Below, piece after piece: positions 6,620 through 56,084 of a stretch of 64,000 nucleotides of DNA (its first letter is position 1; each line of letters opens with the position of its first letter). Origin of the DNA: Stegostoma tigrinum (Eukaryota). Both the position numbers and the translations under genes were made by a program. The stretch is taken from the NCBI RefSeq assembly GCF_030684315.1, contig NC_081381.1:27965811-28029810 (forward strand). The letters are read 5' to 3'. Below the pieces are notes generated by a model, which saw only the letters and a program-made list of their open reading frames with translations, was not told the DNA's origin and made no database searches.

Positions 6620-7676
6620 TGGAGCAGGAAAGCTGACATTTCAGGTTGGGATCCGTCTTCAGAAATGGGGGAGGGGAAAGGGACTCAAATAAATAGAGGG
6701 TCAGAGGCGGGTGATAGCAGGTAGATAGTGTTGCGGATGGGTGGGAGAGAAGACGGACAGGTGAAGGAGGCAGGGATGAAGCTAGAAAGGGTCAGTTTGG
6801 CTAGGTGATGGTGAGGATTGGTCAGTGAAGTGGGAGAGAAGATGCACAAATCAATGAGGCAGGGATTAAAGGGGGCTGCTGGTCTTGGGATGAGGTCGGA
6901 GGGGGGAGATTTTGAAACTGGTAAAGTCCACATTGAGTTGTAGACTTCCAAGGTGGAATATGAGGTGCTGTTACTCCAGTTTTTGGCTGGCATTGTTATG
7001 ATACTGGAAGAGGCCCAGGATGGACATGTTGTCCAGGGACTGGGACAGGGAGTTGAAGTGGTTCGTGACAGGAAGGGTTGTTGTTTGTTGAGAACTGAGC
7101 GCAGGTGTTCTACAAAGCAGTCTCCGAGTGTCCGCTTGGTCTCCCCGATGTACAGGAGGCCACATCAGGAACAGCGGATACAATAGACCACATTAGCAGA
7201 TGTGCAGATGTACATCTGTTTGATGTGGAAGGTTTTTTTGGGGCCTGGGATGGAGGTGAGAGGGGAGATGGAGGGGCAGGTGTAGCACCTCCTGTGGCTG
7301 CAGGGAAAAGTGTTGGGTGTGGTGGGGCTAGTAGGGAGTGTGGAGCGGACGAGGGAGTTGCGGACAGTGTGGTCCCTCTGGAAGGGAAACTGCTCCTCCC
7401 ACCTCAGTGACCAATCAACACAATTGGCTAACTATAGTAACCTTTACTAGCTTCATCCCTGCCTCCTTGACCTGTCCATCTTCTCTCCCAACTATCCGGT
7501 CCACCATCTACCTGCTATCACCGCTCCCCCCACCGCATTTATTTCAGAGCCCCCATTTCTGAAGAAGGGTCCCAACCCGAAACGTCAGTTTTCCTACTTC
7601 TCTGATGTTGCCTGGCCTGCTGTGTTCCTCCAGCTCCACACTGTTATCTCTGACTCCAGCATCGGCAGTTCTTACT
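6620..7676 (-). mobile_element. Penelope-like element fragment (GIY-YIG 3' part on -, inverted terminal repeat copy on +) with 15-bp TSD
   Basis: Degenerate GETxRxLGDxFxEHL motif; TSD ATCCCT(C/T)CCATAATG at 6605-6619 and 7677-7691. Confidence 0.8.
7557..7590 (+). ncRNA. Minimal hammerhead ribozyme core (Penelope-associated)
   Basis: CTGAAGA-AGGGTCCCAACCC-GAAAC-GTC-AG. Confidence 0.6.
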
Positions 7677-13953: not shown

Positions 13954-14763
13954 TCATCATGGAAAGAGGTGCTGCATGATTAACATTCTACTCAAACAAT
14001 GCTCAGTCACAGAGTGAGGAAAATAAAAAGCATATTCATGAGCCAGTGTTGATAAATACCCTAGTTATCACTATAATGATTGAAGTTGCACTGCAGAGTG
14101 TGCATACTGTCCAGTGTTAGTCACACACAGTGACAATAAGCACAGCATTGCTTGAAACATGAGTCTCCTCCGTCATTCCCTTGGCAGATTGTCAGTCATG
14201 CCTGCCGATTGCTCTGGAAAGGAGCTAACAGCACAACATTTTTATGCCAGGGCAAGCACTTCAGCAAAGATAGGATTATTCGCCTTGGAATAGAAAAGTT
14301 TAAGAGAAACTAAAGTTGAGAATCGAGGGTTTTGGAGAAGCTGCCTTCAGTGGCAGAAAGTCTGATAATTTAGATTTATGAAATTGGTGAAAGAACCAGA
14401 TGCAAAAGGATTTTTTTTTAAAACCCATTGAATTCTTGTGATCTTAAATGCACTACTCTAATGGGTGGTGTAAGAAAATTAAATAATAACTTACAAAAGG
14501 TAATTCGATAAATATTTATAAAGGACAAACTTGAAAGGGCGTGGGCACAGAGCAGCAGGAAAATGGGACTAACCGCATAGCTTTCAAACAGGGGCTCCAG
14601 ATACAATGGGCTGAATGGAAGATTCTATGATTCAGTGGCTCCAACAGGAGCCAGTTTCACAATGCAGCAGATGAAGCTAAGTCTCCAACCTTTCTTCCCT
14701 ACACCCACCAGGACTATGACCTCATGGTGTGCTCAGAGCCTCAGACAGCAAATCAAAGAGCTG

Positions 14764-15519
14764 TACCCGGTGCGGCTTTCTCTACATTGGGGAAACCAAG
14801 CGGAGGCTTGGGGACCGCTTTGCAGAACACCTCCGCTCAGTTCGCAACAAACAACTGCACCTCCCAGTCGCAAACCATTTCCACTCCCCCCCCCATTCTC
14901 TTGATGACATGTCCATCATGGGCCTCCTGCACTGCCACAATGATGCCACCCGAAGGTTGCAGGAACAGCAACTCATATTCCGCCTGGGAACCCTGCAGCC
15001 ATATGGTATCAATGTGGACTTCACCAGTTTCAAAATCTCCCCTTCCCCCACTGCATCCCTAAACCAGCCCAGTTCATCCCCTCCCCCCACTGCACCACAC
15101 AACCAGCCCAGCTCTTCCCCCCCACCCACTGCATCCCAAAACCAGTCCAACCTGTCTCTGCCTCCCTAACCGGTTCTTCCTCTCACCCATCCCTTCCTCC
15201 CACCCCAAGCCGCACCCCCAGCTACCTACTAACCTCATCCCACCTGCTTGACCTGTCCGTCTTCCCTGGACTGACCTATCCCCTCCCTACCTCCCCACCC
15301 ACACCTTCTCCACCTATCTTCTTTACTCTCCATCTTCGGTCCGCCTCCCCCTCTCTCCCTATTTATTCCAGTTCCCTCCCCCCATCCCCCTCTCTGATGA
15401 AAGGTCTAGGCCCGAAACGTCAGCTTTTGTGCTCCTGAGATGCTGCTTGGCCTGCTGTGTTCATCCAGCCTCACATTTTATTATCTTGGAATCTCCAGCA
15501 TCTGCAGTTCCCATTATCT
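14764..15519 (+). mobile_element. 5'-truncated Penelope-like retroelement (GIY-YIG endonuclease C-terminus plus terminal repeat) with perfect 15-bp TSD
   Basis: CTRCGFLYIGETKRRLGDRFAEHL...EQQLIFRLGTLQPYGINVDF; TSD CAAATCAAAGAGCTG at 14749-14763 and 15520-15534. Confidence 0.9.
15392..15424 (+). ncRNA. Minimal hammerhead ribozyme core (Penelope-associated)
   Basis: ct-CTGATGA-AAGGTCTAGGCCC-GAAAC-GTC-ag. Confidence 0.65.
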
Positions 15520-15556
15520 CAAATCAAAGAGCTGATTGTTTTGGAGTATAGCTCAC

Positions 15557-16644: not shown

Positions 16645-16843
16645 CTGTAAACAAAATGCAATTAGTCCAGAACAAACTAGCAGTGTAGAATGGCCAGGAG
16701 CTTGGAATTTCCACAACAAATCATTCTTGACTTTATCAAACAGTAGAGTAGGGTTGATAGGCCAAATAGCTTGCTCCTGCTTCTATTTCTCACAATCATA
16801 GAGTCATACAGCCCAGAAACAGACTCTTATGATTTTAAGATCA

Positions 16844-16967
16844 GAGATAATGAGAACTGCAGATGCTGGAGAATACGAGATAACAAAGGATGGAGCTACT
16901 TGAACACAGCAGCCAAGCAGCATCTCAGGAGCACAAAAGCTCATTTCAGGCCCAGACCCTTCATCAG
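16844..16967 (-). mobile_element. Solo Penelope terminal-repeat fragment with a degenerate hammerhead; similar copy at about 19840-19965
   Basis: Reverse complement of 15392-15519. Confidence 0.75.
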
Positions 16968-17046
16968 AAAGTCTGGGATAGCATAAACACTGATAAACCT
17001 GCAATGCAATTAGCACCATCTTTTGCTGGCAGTGTATATGACCTAC

Positions 17047-18600: not shown

Positions 18601-20489
18601 TGGCATAAAGACAAAATACTGAGGGAGCTGAAAATCTAAAATAACAGAAACGTTTAGCCTATCTATGAAGAGAACCTTAAAGAATTGGTGGGTTTTTTGT
18701 AGTAAAAAAATCAGTTTTGTGGAATGATCACCAACCTGAAACTTCATCTGTTTCTGTCTAAAGATGCAGACAGACATGCTGAATATTTCCAAAATTTTAT
18801 TTGCAAACCGCTTTTCATTGCCACTAGACGTGTTAAAGCATTTTATAGTCAGTGACGTTGCTGGAATGTAGGAAAAGCTGCAATAGAGTCAAATCAAAGG
18901 CATCCCATTTGCATGTGTTTGGCCCAGTATCCCTCTAAACCTTTTCTATTCATGTATCTGTGGAAATGACTTTAAATGTTGTAACTGTATCTGCATCTCC
19001 CACTTCCTTTGGCAGTTCTTTCCATGTACAACGCACACTCTGTGTGAAAAAAATGCCTCAGGTGATAGGCAGTAGAGAGCCTTAATGCTTTATACAGTCT
19101 CAAGACATAGCAAGTTATGTTTGATTTGGCCTCGACTGCAGTCTTGTGTCCAATTTAATGGATGCAACAGTTCTCCCATCTGCCAGGTGGAAAATCCAGT
19201 GAGACCCTTTTTTTTGGGTAGGTGTGCCAGCACATAGGTGGGCAACAGCAGGCCTACCCCAGCATCATAGACCCTTACAGCTGCTGGCCACTGATTGGTC
19301 AATAAGTTTCATTGACTGGTTGTGCTACCAGTACTACACCCACTGGTGAAGCAGAATTGTCAATGAACACAGATGGTGGGAAGGGGGAAAATACCATGGG
19401 ATGGGGGTTTAACCACAAGGGCATGGGATTGGCTGTTAGCTATTTGGCCCCTTAATCAGGCACTCATGCCTCGCGCAAATTCCGTATGGGTTCCTGATAC
19501 AGTTTGCTTTTCAGGCCTCCTGCATTTTGACTCTTGGTCTGTCGTTGAGTGGGCTGTTTAAAAATCTCACTTGGCAGCAGGGCATGAATACCATCTACAT
19601 ATGCCTTCCCACCTTGGATTAATTGGGCAGAGACGGAAAGGCAGCCAGGTCCCCACCCATCACTTGATTAAGTGTTTCCCCCGTCCCTGTTCTCAAACAC
19701 ATCACAGAAGAGGGTTTAAATTTCACACAAAGTCTTGAGCCAACTATACTGGCATCTGTGAAGCTGAGAAACTCGGGAAGAGGGCAAGGTGATTCATCAA
19801 CTTGGCACATTTAGCTAAACCTGGTTGTAGATGCTTCAGAGATTGTAGGAACTGCAGCTGCTGGAGAACCTGAGATAACAAGGTGCAGAACTGGCTGAAC
19901 GCAACAGGCCAAGCAGCATCAGAGGAGCAGGAAAGCTGATGTTTCGGGTCTAGACCCTTCTTAGGAATTGTAGATGCTTCAGTCCGTCTTTCATTTTCTA
20001 TGCCAGGCTCTGTCATCAATACGGATGGGAATGCTTATGGAGCCACACAGTTCTATTGGCTAATTGTTCACCACCAATCATGACTGAATGGCTGGACAGC
20101 AGAACATTGATCTGATCCGTTAGTTGTGAATTAAAACGTTAGAAGCCAGAAGTCGGTCACTCAATCTCTTGAAGCTTAGATCCTAGCTGATCCACAACCT
20201 CAACTCACTTTCCTGCTAATCTCGATCTAATTTCCTTCACAATCTTCTGAGTAAAGAAATTTCTATTGTGCTCAATTCTGAATGTCCATCCCTTTATCTG
20301 TTTTTGTTTCTGATTTCCAGCACCCACAGTTCTTTTTTTTTAAGACTCTTTAACTATCTAGGTTCTCCACTCAGGTAAAACAGTCAATATTTACGCTATC
20401 AACCCCACTTATATTCTACTCAACCTTCCCTCATAAACTAACATTTGCACTGTAGTTGAGTTACTCCAGTAACTAATTGAGCAGAGACA

Positions 20490-32756: not shown

Positions 32757-33778
32757 CTGGATGTAAGTTTGCTCACTGAGCTGGAAGGTTCATTTTCAGA
32801 CCTTTCGTCACCATTCTAGGTAACATCATCAGTGAGCCTCCGGTGAAGCGCTGGTGTTATGTCCCGCTTTCTATTTATGAGTTTAGGTTTCCTTGGGTTG
32901 GTGATGTCACTTCCTGTGTTGATGTCATTTCCTGTTCTTTTTCTCAGAGGGTGGCAGATGGGCTCCAAATCAATGTGTTTGTTGATGGAGTTCCGGTTGG
33001 AATGCCATGCTTCTAGGAATTCTCGTGCGTGTCTCTGTTTGGCTTGTCCTAGGATGGATGTGTTGTCCCAATCAAAGTGGTGTCCTTCCTCATCTGTATG
33101 TAAGGATACTAGTGATAGTGGGTCATGTTGTTTTGTGGCTAGTTGATGTTCATGTATCCTGGTGGCTAGCTTTCTGCCCGTTTGTCCAATGTAGTGTTTG
33201 TCACAGTTCTTGCAAGGTATTTTGTAAATTACGTTCGTAAATGATGTACAAAATACCTTGCAAGAACTGTGACAAACACTACATTGGACAAACGGGCAGA
33301 AAGCTAGCCACCAGGATACATGAACATCAACTAGCCACAAAAAGACATGACCCACTATCACTAGTATCCTTACATACAGATGCGGAAGGACACCACTTTG
33401 ATTGGGACAACACATCCATCCTAGGACAAGCCAAACAGAGACACGCACGAGAATTCCTAGAAGCATGGCATTCCAACCGGAACTCCATCAACAAACACAC
33501 TAATTTGGAGACCATCTACCACCCTCTGAGAAAAAGAATAGGAAATGACATCACCAACACAGAAAATGACATCAACACAGGAACTGACATCACCAACCCA
33601 AGGAAACCTAAACACATAAATAGAAAGCGGGACATAACACTAGTGCTTCACTGGAGGCTCACTGATGATGTTATCTAGAATGGTGACGAAACATCTGAAA
33701 ATGAACCTTCCAGCTCAGCGAGCAAACTTACATCCAGAACCTCAACCTGAGCTACAAATCTTCTCAAAACTCGCTACA
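32757..33778. mobile_element. Penelope-like element (second family) as a ~1-kb head-to-head inverted duplication of GIY-YIG plus terminal repeat; 10-bp TSD
   Basis: YKIPCKNCDKHYIGQTGRKLATRIHEH on both strands; arms 32757-33226 and 33247-33737; CCCCATTTAC at 32748-32757 and 33779-33788. Confidence 0.9.
33659..33698 (+). ncRNA. Minimal hammerhead ribozyme core; mirror copy on - at about 32797-32835
   Basis: tca-CTGATGA-TGTTATCTAGAATGGTGAC-GAAAC-ATC-tga; the mirror copy reads GAAAG-GTC. Confidence 0.55.
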
Positions 33779-38040: not shown

Positions 38041-39825
38041 TGTGCTAGTGAGTGGGTGAAAGAGGTAGAAGAAGCAAGTTTAAGAGACAGGGGCTAGAAA
38101 CAGAATCAATGAAAGTGAGACAGGTAGAGACGGGTTTGTGAACAGCATCAGAGAATGTGACATAGTCAGAGCAAATGAGCAAGAAAATTAGTTCAGGGAA
38201 TACATAATTATATTTAAGGACAATGTGGAACTGGAATACAAAATTGTTTGGACTCTGGTTTGAAAAGGTTTTGAAGGAACATGTAACTTCTGAGTGTCAT
38301 GTTCAGCAGTAATTACTGAGTCAAATTTTAATGTGCACTGTTAGCCACCTACAGTTTTGTTGGAAATCAAGTGATTTTGGAAAGAAGACGAGCAAAGCTT
38401 TAAAGACAGTTAAGAGATCAGCTGAATTTCTAGACAAACTTGGTTTGGAAGAGATAGAACCAAAGTGCTAGAGGCTGACTAGTTCATCGTTTGAACTAAA
38501 GTTGCTGTTTCAGTGCACAGGTTGGAGTGTCAGTTGAAATAACAAACCTCCAAAAAGCTGGCAGCAAAAAAAAAATTCTCTCCCTCACCTGAAAAAGAAG
38601 AAACTTTACAGCAGGATAACTGCACAAAAGTCTCTCAGTGAAATACCTTCCCTGGGGGCCCCGAGAAATTTCCAGAAACAAATATGCTGAACCTCGTCTT
38701 AAACTCTGAAAGCTGACTTATTTCTATTCAAAGTCCTAACTCTAAGGCTATTCTCATCAAAGTGAAATTGAAGTTTATTTCAAATAAACAAGTTATTTTT
38801 TAACTTTATTGAAGAAACTGGTTGATAGTCTCTTTTGTGCTTGATAATAGAAAGGAGAAAAACATTCATCATTTTGGTAAGTGAGATGTACGCTTCTACT
38901 ATATTTTGTGGAGCAGATTCTTTTCATTCATGGGATGTGGGTGTAGCTGCCTGGGCCAGCATTTATTGCCCATCTCTAATTTCAAGAGGGCAGTCAACCA
39001 TACTTCTGTGGCTCTGGAGTCACCTGGCAGCTGGGACTAGTTTAGCTTTGGACTATAGTTGGTATCGACTGGTTGGACCAAAGGGTCTTTTTCTCTGCTG
39101 TATGACTCTATGTATGCAAGACCAAGGAAAGATGGCAATTTGCTCTTCTCAAAGACGTCACCTGGGTCTCTGGATTATTACCGCTTGGCTTGATGACCAA
39201 TGCACTGGAGAAAAATTGAGACAGTGACTACGAAAGAAAGTGTGGGGAACTGGCATAAAGATAGAAAGTGAATGAATGAAAGAGTGAATGACTGGCAGAG
39301 AAAGTGACAGAACGAAATGGTAGAGTAACGGATGAGTAACTAAGCGTTAAGAGAGCAATTGTCTCAGTAGGAAAGGAACATTGTGAATGAATATGACAGC
39401 AATGATACCCAGGCAAATTAATGGTAAAGTCATGTACAGAATTACATATATGTGCATGCAGGAGGCCATTCAGCCAATCATGCAGCTGACGGCTTTTTGA
39501 AAAATCAAACAATTTATTGCCACATCCCTGCTCTTTTCCCAAGTTCCTAGTTAACATCGTTATAAGATGTCTAACTGAAACAGAAAATGCTGAAAATACT
39601 CAGGTCTGTAACATCTGTGAAAAGAGAAACAAAGTTAACATTTCACATCAAAGACCTTCCATCAAGCCAAAATATTAATTCTATCCCCATCTTAAATGGT
39701 GTGAGACATGAGATCTAAGAAACAACTGCACACTACAATGTAGATGTTAGAATCTCACTAGATGATCTGAATAACATTCTTGTTCTGTAATAAACTTGGG
39801 ATTGTGACAGCAGGGCCACACCTAC

Positions 39826-39923
39826 CTTTGTGGGACCATTTCCATGGATGATGACTGGCAATGAATTATACTCTATGTTTCGTGCTCTTACTCGCTTATC
39901 TTCAAACTTCAGAACCACTTCAT
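39826..39923 (-). CDS. PLOD1: PLOD1 exon 7
   Basis: [15 protein letters not shown]...[11 protein letters not shown]; 98 nt. Confidence 0.96.
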
Positions 39924-40262
39924 CTGGCAATCAGAGAGAAACCAGCAAAAGATAGACTGTGTTAGCACAGTTAAATCTGTTGACTTTTGCTCTTAATTCT
40001 ATTTACTTCCCCTGAAGTTAGTTTGTCAAACCTCCTCTAAGAATGAGACCATAAATACCAGATTGTATGTGCAACATATCTAATATAAAGTTCTGGAAAC
40101 ATTCAGAAATTACTGTCTGAGGAGAGATTTCCCACTATGCGTTCCTGCTTGTAGCTCTCTGTACACTGTAGGGAAAGAAGATGGGATGTTCATTGTCCAG
40201 TGATGGTTGCAATCACAGCCTTCACTGGCAGCCAGCATAAAGGAAGTTCCCAATTTCCATTG

Positions 40263-40489
40263 TATCAGTGATAATGGGAACTGCAGATGCTGGAGAATCC
40301 AAGATAACAAAGTGTGAAGCTAGATGAACACAGCAGGCCAAGCAGCATCTCAGGAGCACAAAAGCTGACGTTTCGGGCCTAGACCCTTCATCAGAGGCTC
40401 TGATGAAGGGTCTAGGCCCGAAACGTCAGCTTTTGTGCTCCTGAGATGCTGCTGGGCCTGCTGTGTTCATCCAGCCCCACACTTTGTTA
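40263..40489. mobile_element. Non-autonomous palindromic Penelope-derived element: two head-to-head terminal repeats, each with a hammerhead core; 15-bp TSD
   Basis: Arms 40303-40396 and 40398-40491 (1-nt spacer, 4 mismatches); TSD TCCCAATTTCCATTG at 40248-40262 and 40490-40504. Confidence 0.85.
40397..40430 (+). ncRNA. Minimal hammerhead ribozyme core; mirror copy on - at 40364-40396
   Basis: gct-CTGATGA-AGGGTCTAGGCCC-GAAAC-GTC-agc; stem I gct/agc, stem II GGGTC/GGCCC. Confidence 0.7.
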
Positions 40490-41254
40490 TCCCAATTTCC
40501 ATTGACTGCTTTAGCCAGAATTCAGTTGGTAATCAGTAACCAGCATGAGGACAGCTCTGCCTAGATTGATAACTTCACTGACCAGGTTAACCTTTATTCT
40601 AGCATCTTAAACAACCACAACTGATAGGAGGTCATGCCCCAAGCACACACACCTGATGATCTTTATGAACAAGAGGTCACATTTCTATGGAACTGGCCTT
40701 GAATATTAGGTGAGTTGATGATTGTACACATATTCTTTTCTTCTTTATTCTTTCATTGGATATGGACATCGCTGGCAAGACAGCATTTGCTGCCCCCTGT
40801 CCTTAAATGGGCTCTTTAACTTGAATCAAGGGGCTTGCTAGGTGCTTTCAAGCACATAGCTCTGGAGTCATATTGGCCAGACTAGGTAAGGATGGCACAT
40901 TTCCTTTTCTAAAGACATTAGTGAACTTGGTGGGCTTTTATAACAATCAATGTTGACAGTCATCATCAACATCTCTAAGACTAGATTTAACTTCCAGTTT
41001 TCAGTGTAATTGAATAAATTGAATTTGAATTCCACAAGCTGACATTGGGGAATTTTAAATCATGTTCCCAAGCATTCGCCTGGACTTCTGGATTATTCAT
41101 CCACTGACATTACCACTACTCCATTGTTTGCCTAAGTTTTCATAGCTGCTTTATGCTTGGATTCTTGATTGGATGCTTTGTTGTGTGACTCCTGACTATG
41201 ATTCAGAAGAGCAGAAAACACAGAGGCCTGTGCAGGATCCAAACCCGAACATAC

Positions 41255-41318
41255 CAAGTGCTCCATTTAAATTCTGGAATATCCGACATTTGTGGTCCAA
41301 GGTAATATTCAAACTTGC
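41255..41318 (-). CDS. PLOD1: PLOD1 exon 6
   Basis: ASLNITLDHKCRIFQNLNGAL; 64 nt. Confidence 0.95.
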
Positions 41319-55034: not shown

Positions 55035-56084
55035 TGCTTAATTCTGTATTCTCTCTCTCAATCCTTTCTTCTCGACTTTCCTTTTCAGAGCTTAAACTGG
55101 GCCCAGGGCTACAGCATCGCCTTCCATAGGGCAGCGCGTCACTTTAAACAGGCCAGCCCCTCTTCCCAGGCTCTCCCTACTGCCCCTGACTCACGTACAC
55201 ACAGACGGTGCACATACTCAACATAAAGACACACACACACATAGATGGAGCTACTTAATTGGTTCGAATCTTCTGCTGTGTTGCTTTTCCCCATCACTAT
55301 TCAAAAACCTTTGGATCAGAGCTTGGGAAAATCAATCAGCTTTATTTCTCCCGATCAGTGTCCAGTGATCCCTGGTTTAGAGAGAGAGGACATCAGATAG
55401 CTCTTCTGCTCCTCATTGCTGTCTAGTAATCCATAGGTTAGCGAGGAGAAATCATTCCTGCTCCTAACCTCCGTTCAACGATGCCTGGACAAACGGCTCC
55501 CTGACCCTGAACACACTTGCCACATTTGGCTTAGGGAAATGGTATGTAACCTGGGGGGTGGGTTAGAGAATGAGGGGAAATCAACCGAGATGCCTGCTGT
55601 AGATCACTATCTAGTAAATTTTGATCAAAGGGAGGGGATAGTATCAAACGAGGCTCCTTCCCCTTATCACTGCCAGTGGACTCTCGCTGAAAGTTAGTAA
55701 CGAATTCTGCCCCAGATCATTAACACTTTCTGCCCCAGATTTCCTTGTGGGAAATCAGCCTAGGTTCGTGTTCCTGATCATCACCAGTGAGTAGGTGGAA
55801 GAAGTGTATAGAACTGTTTACAGCAAGAATCATTAAACTTCAGGGGGGATACTAGCAAAAAATACCAGTGTCAATGTGGCTCTTGTCCAGCATTAGCAAA
55901 TTCCTTCACACCTGACAAAAACCGAAAGGACTGCGGACGTTGTTAGTCAGGAACTAAACAGAAGTTGCTGGAAGAGCTCAGCAGGTGTGGCAGCATCTGT
56001 GGAGAGAAGTCAGAAGTTAACGTTTCGGGTCCGGTGACCCTTGCTCAATATTGTTTTTGACTCCTCAGGCCTGGACCTTGTTCA

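Follow-up and report, generated by a model that had tools for sequence, protein, structure and literature searches.

Between two exons of a PLOD-family gene, the shark Stegostoma tigrinum carries a short insertion built of two inverted arms, each with a putative hammerhead ribozyme core. How does such a unit arise: is it a mobile element that is copied as a whole, a single extreme truncation of a larger element, or the product of a recurrent event? We addressed this question in a stretch of 64,000 nucleotides (NC_081381.1, positions 27,965,811 to 28,029,810 of the forward strand), called the window throughout, and in the genome around it.

Anatomy of the insertion and its host locus

The host gene lies on the minus strand, and the insertion falls between two GT_PLOD exon matches, near 41255-41317 and 39805-39927, as the original prediction of an intronic position had it. 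That prediction had named PLOD1; our identification is at the level of the family (PLOD1, 2 or 3), and the nearest solved relative in a PDB sequence search is PLOD3, a match that does not fix the paralogue. Positions within the element are counted from h+1, the first C of the hammerhead core, which places the predicted cut between h+28 and h+29. The insertion and a longer reference copy of the same Penelope-like element (PLE) family comprise the following features:

40248..40262, no strand: target-site duplication, left copy, 15 bp; its 4 inner bases also match the continuation of the element past the tail (priming microhomology)
40263..40302, minus strand: 40-nt PLE tail, on the long arm only; lies between the two putative reverse-transcription starts and matches the 3' end of 14764-15519
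40263..40396, minus strand: long (tailed) arm, 134 nt, h-1 to h+132
40367..40394, minus strand: minimal type I hammerhead core of the long arm; predicted cut after 40367
40397..40397, plus strand: spacer, a single G, not templated by the common upstream sequence of either arm
40398..40491, plus strand: short (tail-less) arm, h-1 to about h+92; its last 2 bases are common with the right duplication
40400..40427, plus strand: minimal type I hammerhead core of the short arm; predicted cut after 40427
40490..40504, no strand: target-site duplication, right copy, 15 bp
14764..15519, plus strand: longer single-arm, 5'-truncated copy of the same PLE family, with GIY-YIG end, C/T-rich tract, hammerhead and tail; used as reference

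The 94-nt inverted arms (40303-40396 and 40398-40491; 96% complementary, with 4 mismatches and a 1-nt gap) and the exact 15-bp direct repeat that bounds the insertion were recovered where the original prediction had placed them, as were both hammerhead cores, which start at 40400 on the plus and at 40394 on the minus strand, and the predicted cut after 40427. Its description of the unit as a palindrome holds for the inverted arms but not for their symmetry: the left arm is 134 nt long and includes the 40-nt tail, which the right arm lacks. Read on the minus strand, the 227-nt unit consists of an inverted arm of 92-94 nt, one spacer base and a sense arm of 134 nt, whose tail is made of the same 40 nt that terminate the GIY-YIG-coding copy at 14764-15519. 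Near-identity of the arm to the end of that copy was confirmed (95% over 127 nt for the left arm), and the reference copy has its own 15-bp duplication (14749-14763 and 15520-15534). The short and long arms of the window insertion differ from each other at h55, 73, 77 and 78. Inverted pseudo-LTRs (pLTRs), one-sided tails and duplications are already in print (PMC3846280 and PMC8557442, accessible parts), and the window unit is the smallest form of this known PLE insertion, reading duplication, inverted tail-less arm, tailed arm, duplication. The locus itself is probably an ordinary, harmless intronic insertion.

The possibility that the inverted arrangement is an assembly artefact can be regarded as negligible. 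In its favour, none of the contigs listed spans the whole unit. Against it stand the differences between the arms at 4 sites and in length, the exact duplication on both sides, the presence of own duplications in 94 of 104 similar copies, and contigs from the reads of runs X9 and X12, which cross both outer flank-element junctions without mismatch and at flank depth; these runs may be the source of the assembly. The empty-site joint was absent among the 15 joints listed, beyond which there were 757 further ones.

Minimal hammerhead cores and their predicted masking

The core of the short arm has a bulged A, a 4-bp helix II, a palindromic remnant of helix III and a 2-bp helix I. It thus contains the components of the minimal type I pattern in the accessible text of PMC4209133, i.e., the conserved core, a bulged base, helix II, the palindromic 15.2-16.2 and helix I. 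With the metazoan PLE hammerheads described there it has in common the bulged base before helix II, the G-C closing pair, the palindromic helix III remnant and the short helix I. The pairs of helices I and II are kept, with differing sequences, in three families of this genome. Since the Rfam gathering score was not reached (0 matches in the window at gathering thresholds), the motif and the published criteria for minimal hammerheads are the basis of the hammerhead call. A lone minimal hammerhead was reported inactive in vitro (PMC4209133), and the available sections of that source describe opposite-strand motif pairs 100-700 bp apart and give no evidence of cleavage in vivo; the two cores of the window unit, in contrast, begin about 5 bp apart. 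Elsewhere in the window, at 56068 on the minus strand, lies a hammerhead-like motif of a third family, whose other loci have a 4-bp helix I.

The transcript of the window unit has a predicted fold of -179.6 kcal/mol (z = -23.5), and 0 of 200 shuffled sequences were equally stable. One arm by itself folds no better than its shuffles (z = 0.65). In the nascent minus-strand transcript, the predicted probability of helix II is about 1e-21, so that the hairpin is predicted to mask the ribozyme in the transcript of the unit, as had been proposed at the outset. It had also been proposed that this masking would make the insertion tolerable within the intron, although a lone minimal hammerhead is reported to lack activity in vitro in any case (PMC4209133).

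The parent family

A 26-nt motif from the tail has 110,317 exact matches in the genome. In 3 of 30 loci (L164, L165 and L179), the pLTR and tail continue into an ORF. The translated reverse transcriptase of locus L092 contains a DKG motif, and its RVT_1 match (E=2.5e-5) is below the Pfam cut-off. The Pfam GIY-YIG profile gave no match on the family of the window element; the translations of 14765-15100, L072 and L092 show the nuclease features listed in the accessible text of PMC8557442, and L072 and L092 also contain C-X4-C-X2-C, in keeping with a CX2-5CxxC linker upstream of the nuclease. Judged by this linker and by the features given in PMC8557442, the parent is an endonuclease-bearing PLE of the Neptune/Nematis type. 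The original assignment to PLEs with minimal hammerheads thus stands, with the family features present in related copies and the core fitting the minimal type I pattern.

Further PLE copies were seen in the window. Positions 32757-33737 hold a member of a second PLE family, with two long inverted GIY-YIG arms and a different minimal hammerhead at each end; other loci of this family have two 3' ends about 35 nt apart and a head-to-head plan. An inverted PLE insertion at 6623-7598 is older, diverged and related to the main family. Two single short arms of the main family lie on the minus strand, one at 16840-16970, which begins at the 5' boundary described below and has a damaged core, and one at 19836-19960, which begins inside the core.

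Each short copy looks independently made

The original prediction left the choice between a retrozyme-like unit mobilised in trans and a one-off extreme truncation, to be decided by whether other copies have the same centre (a family) or random centres (a one-off). This test turned out not to discriminate: the centre is fixed within a few bases, yet the copies look independently made. Genome-wide, a window-like centre with spacers of 0-3 nt occurs at 1,492 places, and the copies have their own duplications. Both observations speak for transcription and copying in trans of the entire palindrome as a retrozyme-like unit of its own, as does the occurrence of genuine direct-tandem, retrozyme-like derivatives of the same family. 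However, the copies do not share a junction set. The 104 short two-arm copies compared vary in spacer, trimming and both outer ends; they fall into 83 centre types, and no two of the 104 combine the same centre with the same outer ends. When the pairing of arm haplotypes found in the window was searched as a pattern (centre length 95 to 125), the window itself was its sole match in the genome. With all 104 junction sets distinct and the arm pairing unique, each of these short copies, or stubs, therefore looks independently made. Moreover, any transcript of the unit would have one sense hammerhead only, predicted to be fully masked, and either arm may reach further upstream than the other, which is impossible from one self-copying hairpin. 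We thus consider whole-unit copying in trans highly improbable.

Animal (non-LTR) retrozymes, as described in the accessible part of a preprint (bioRxiv 10.64898/2026.07.22.740005), resemble the stubs in being non-coding, derived from PLE pLTRs and hammerhead-bearing. They are, however, direct tandems with at least two hammerheads on the same strand, whereas the window unit has inverted arms with one core per strand and gives no sign of having been copied whole from a source, given its unique arm pairing and the 104 differing junction sets. Direct tandems of the main family were seen in 23 or so of the 30 loci L151-L180 (e.g., L161, L167, L175-L178 and L180). Their units are about 230-450 nt long, have copy-specific junctions and contain the C/T-rich tract, the hammerhead, the tail and the ORF start, i.e., they are retrozyme-like.

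The one-off extreme truncation was also rejected. The window unit belongs to a recurrent class with a fixed 5' boundary, which accounts for 39 of 97 sampled tail-bearing copies (about 40%).

A fixed 5' boundary and coupled arm lengths

Head-to-head pairs were counted genome-wide by the distance between two exact 16-nt anchors, in 30-nt bins over a range of 45 to 165. This yielded 6,065 pairs at 45-74, 13,594 at 75-104, 22,398 at 105-135 and 1,192 at 136-165, counts that include older subfamilies with the same anchor and from which mutated copies escape. About 42,000 pairs are thus centred at or inside the hammerhead, and few just upstream of it. The anchor distance of the window copy is 119.

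Arm ends were determined by local alignment to one natural copy, with a possible error of a few bases, in a sample from the start of contig C1 (99 of 100 listed tail copies, of which 2 were dropped at locus edges to leave 97). The 159 arm 5' ends of this sample cluster at h-5 to h+5 (45 ends), with 2 at h-42 to h-6, 56 further upstream and 11 at h+28 to h+31. A small pile of 7 ends at h+34 is unexplained by the best reading given below. An inverted arm is present in 62 of the 97 copies, and the lengths of the two arms are coupled: 39 pairs are short/short, 16 long/long, 6 long/short and 1 short/long (Fisher p=4e-9). We found the same in a replication sample, 600 kb of DNA taken without selection from five further contigs (31 tails, 5 of them excluded for lying at edges), with 9 short/short, 10 long/long and 1 mixed pair (p=1.2e-4) and 12 of 46 ends at the boundary. 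Because arm lengths are coupled, independent stalls of the two copies are disfavoured.

The base that precedes the boundary was G in 26 of 39 listed junction-type matches starting at h-3 (p=5e-7). On inspection of nine of these cases, the G was clearly untemplated in 4, derived from the target in 2 and from other sequence of the element in 3. Of 30 loci, 5 were long copies in which h-4 is a G variant, and a control at the uncapped cut site had G in 42 of 100, a figure confounded by microhomology with the partner arm. A G excess is what a cap would give, and it hints, weakly and with these confounders, at run-off at a true RNA end. A subfamily with T-rich sequence before the core (L112, L115 and C1:57248597) has the same boundary; here both arms start from h-4, with an identical blunt join.

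Fixed 3' ends and target duplications

The 3' ends of the arms are fixed as well. In 53 of the 62 listed pairs the inverted arm is tail-less and ends near h+93; both arms are tailed in 2 pairs, and 7 have another end. Target duplications were found in 94 of 104 two-arm copies, and 80 of them are 13-17 bp long. At both ends of the insertion, target and element typically have 1-3 nt in common. Seven bases outside each end, A is enriched in mirror image, at 69% and 65% of the 80 copies. Overall, the flanks of these copies are A-rich 7-9 bases outside the duplication ends, as a symmetric dimeric nuclease would give.

Joins at the predicted ribozyme cut site

The 4-nt palindrome starting at h+29, immediately behind the predicted cut, is the centre of about 730 symmetric joins (773 and 760 matches on the two strands; 48 of 53 listed places exact). 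An equally long palindrome at h+24, 5 nt upstream, served as control and gave 34; the control pattern was longer, which explains at most about a quarter of a loss and not the 20-fold gap. Inspection by eye of 50 places listed in the 45-74 bin identified 12 joins of the h+29 type and about 1 on the palindrome at h+24; for each of the palindromes at h+13 and h+16, the places listed in the 75-104 bin gave about 1 of 50. The excess at h+29 suggests, as far as sequence can tell, that cut RNA served as template in the germline and hence that the ribozyme cuts in living cells.

A model for the formation of the stubs

The reading that we favour, and consider reasonably probable, is that the window unit is a minimal insertion of an endonuclease-bearing PLE in which two reverse-transcription runs were joined head to head on landing. 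The endonuclease of the element would nick both strands about 15 bp apart and so provide two 3' ends, a step that rests on the 13-17 bp duplications in 80 of 104 two-arm copies and on the mirror-image A-rich flanks. Each 3' end would then prime on element RNA, one at the end of the tail (about h+126 to +132) and the other some 35-40 nt upstream (about h+93). Such two-site priming would yield one tailed and one tail-less arm, as in 53 of 62 pairs. If the RNA is linear and starts at about h-4 to h-1, probably the site of transcription initiation in the pLTR, both copies would run off after 95-135 nt. Ribozyme-cut RNA would give run-off at h+29, and on circular or tandem RNA both runs would continue and produce long copies. 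This dependence on the form of the RNA is based on the 5' boundary, the h+29 peak and the length coupling. Finally, the two copies would be linked by end joining, in the course of which a few bases may be trimmed or added or microhomology used. The resulting stub is likely to be a dead end that neither cleaves nor spreads: the ORF start found beyond the tail of source copies is missing from it, and it is predicted to be locked in its hairpin.

A different cause of the boundary has to be weighed. Two cDNAs would be made as above, but a protein on the C/U-rich tract would block both runs, or a 5'-to-3' exonuclease would trim a longer RNA back to a protein-covered pLTR. The boundary indeed falls where a long C/T-rich tract upstream of the hammerhead has its 3' edge, and the second PLE family, which has no such tract, shows no boundary near its hammerhead in 18 loci. 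In addition, a block on a shared RNA would couple the arm lengths too, and three near-full-length copies start at h-374, +48 and +22, none of them at the boundary, where a transcription start would lead one to expect some. Read-through copies, whose synthesis came from further downstream and through the tail, argue against it: 15 of 16 pass this position, so that 1 of 16 ends there, compared to 45 of 103 otherwise (p=0.005). The G excess before h-3, though confounded, also suggests run-off at a true end. On balance, a roadblock or exonuclease appears unlikely, albeit the most credible of the alternatives.

The inverted arm could also stem from self-priming (fold-back) of one molecule, as in the antisense-template proposal in the accessible part of PMC3846280. 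In its favour, symmetric centres on short palindromes are common, and the arms are identical at all subfamily sites in 77 of 106 pairs, which would fit one shared template as well as self-copying or later conversion. Some junctions (L054, L114 and L129) contain short snap-back inserts copied from the arm end itself. These inserts resemble polymerase-theta end joining. Self-priming is nevertheless hard to reconcile with the upstream reach of the arms, which is greater for the tailed arm in 17 and for the tail-less arm in 18 of 62 pairs, often by hundreds of bases. Furthermore, 14 of 106 pairs carry different haplotypes on the two arms (differences at at least 2 of five subfamily sites; 1-3% expected by mutation, 57% in shuffled pairs), as does the window copy, whose arms differ at 3 subfamily sites, and at many centres the spacer of 0-1 nt leaves no room for a priming loop. 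Fold-back as the main route thus seems improbable, and two primed copies remain our preferred explanation.

Relation to known systems

The closest published arrangement is that of Pen2a_Av and the general PLE scheme, which, in the accessible parts of PMC3846280 and PMC8557442, have the same head-to-head inverted pLTR, a tail of 30-40 bp on one arm, a duplication and a hammerhead in the pLTR. In contrast to Pen2a_Av (PMC3846280), the stubs lack any ORF, their 5' ends are fixed within a few bases where random truncations were described, they form about 40% of tail-bearing copies, and the evidence favours two primed copies over self-priming. Penelope has its transcription start in its pLTR (PMC8557442; PMC2377424, accessible parts).

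For PAc (Poseidon, green anole), the available text of PMC11167929 reports that in vitro both strands are nicked and extended and that two internal starts bound the tail, just downstream of a hammerhead, which matches the plan of the window family. Because PAc also requires ORF sequence downstream of these starts, priming on a linear transcript would be restricted to the upstream pLTR and would yield a short copy. The two systems differ in that the window family has a CX2-5CxxC linker and that nearly always one arm is tailed and the other is not, whereas the PAc start site was the same for both strands. Ribozyme cleavage was dispensable for PAc in vitro and no reads ended at the cut site; in the window family, by contrast, ends pile up there.

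In LINE-1 twin priming, element RNA is the template for priming from both ends of a staggered cut, which results in a 5' inversion and a target duplication. The second site is variable there, and the parts of the RNA covered by the two copies lie next to each other. In the stubs, on the other hand, the second site is fixed and both copies cover the same stretch of RNA.

In the literature on PLE insertions that we searched, nothing was found on fixed 5' ends, length coupling or joins and peaks at the cut site, most subscription journals lying outside the search; figures S1-S2 of PMC11167929 and the preprint supplements may bear on these points. The supplement text of PMC11167929 (3 files) gave 0 matches.

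Implications

The accessible texts of PMC8557442, PMC4209133 and PMC11167929 treat as open how inverted ends and tails form and whether minimal hammerheads cut in vivo, and the stub class bears on both questions. It also leads to predictions at the level of single bases: one RNA 5' end should lie at h-4 to h-1 and another at h+29, each nicked strand should use a single start, the nicks should be staggered by about 15 bp, and the form of the RNA should set whether products are short or long. In annotation, it would be wrong to classify stubs as families of MITE-like elements or of retrozymes.

Taken together, these observations allow a broader reading, which we put forward tentatively, as possible rather than probable. 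The genome would record about 100,000 PLE integrations. With competent starts only near the 5' end of the transcript, linear RNA would give nothing but strong-stop stubs. The hammerhead would cut in vivo, as the h+29 peak indicates, and only the ligated circle or tandem would give rise to long copies, so that whether a copy lives or ends as a dead stub would depend on the ribozyme. Intronic hairpins left behind in this way, tens of thousands in number, could supply double-stranded RNA against their own family.
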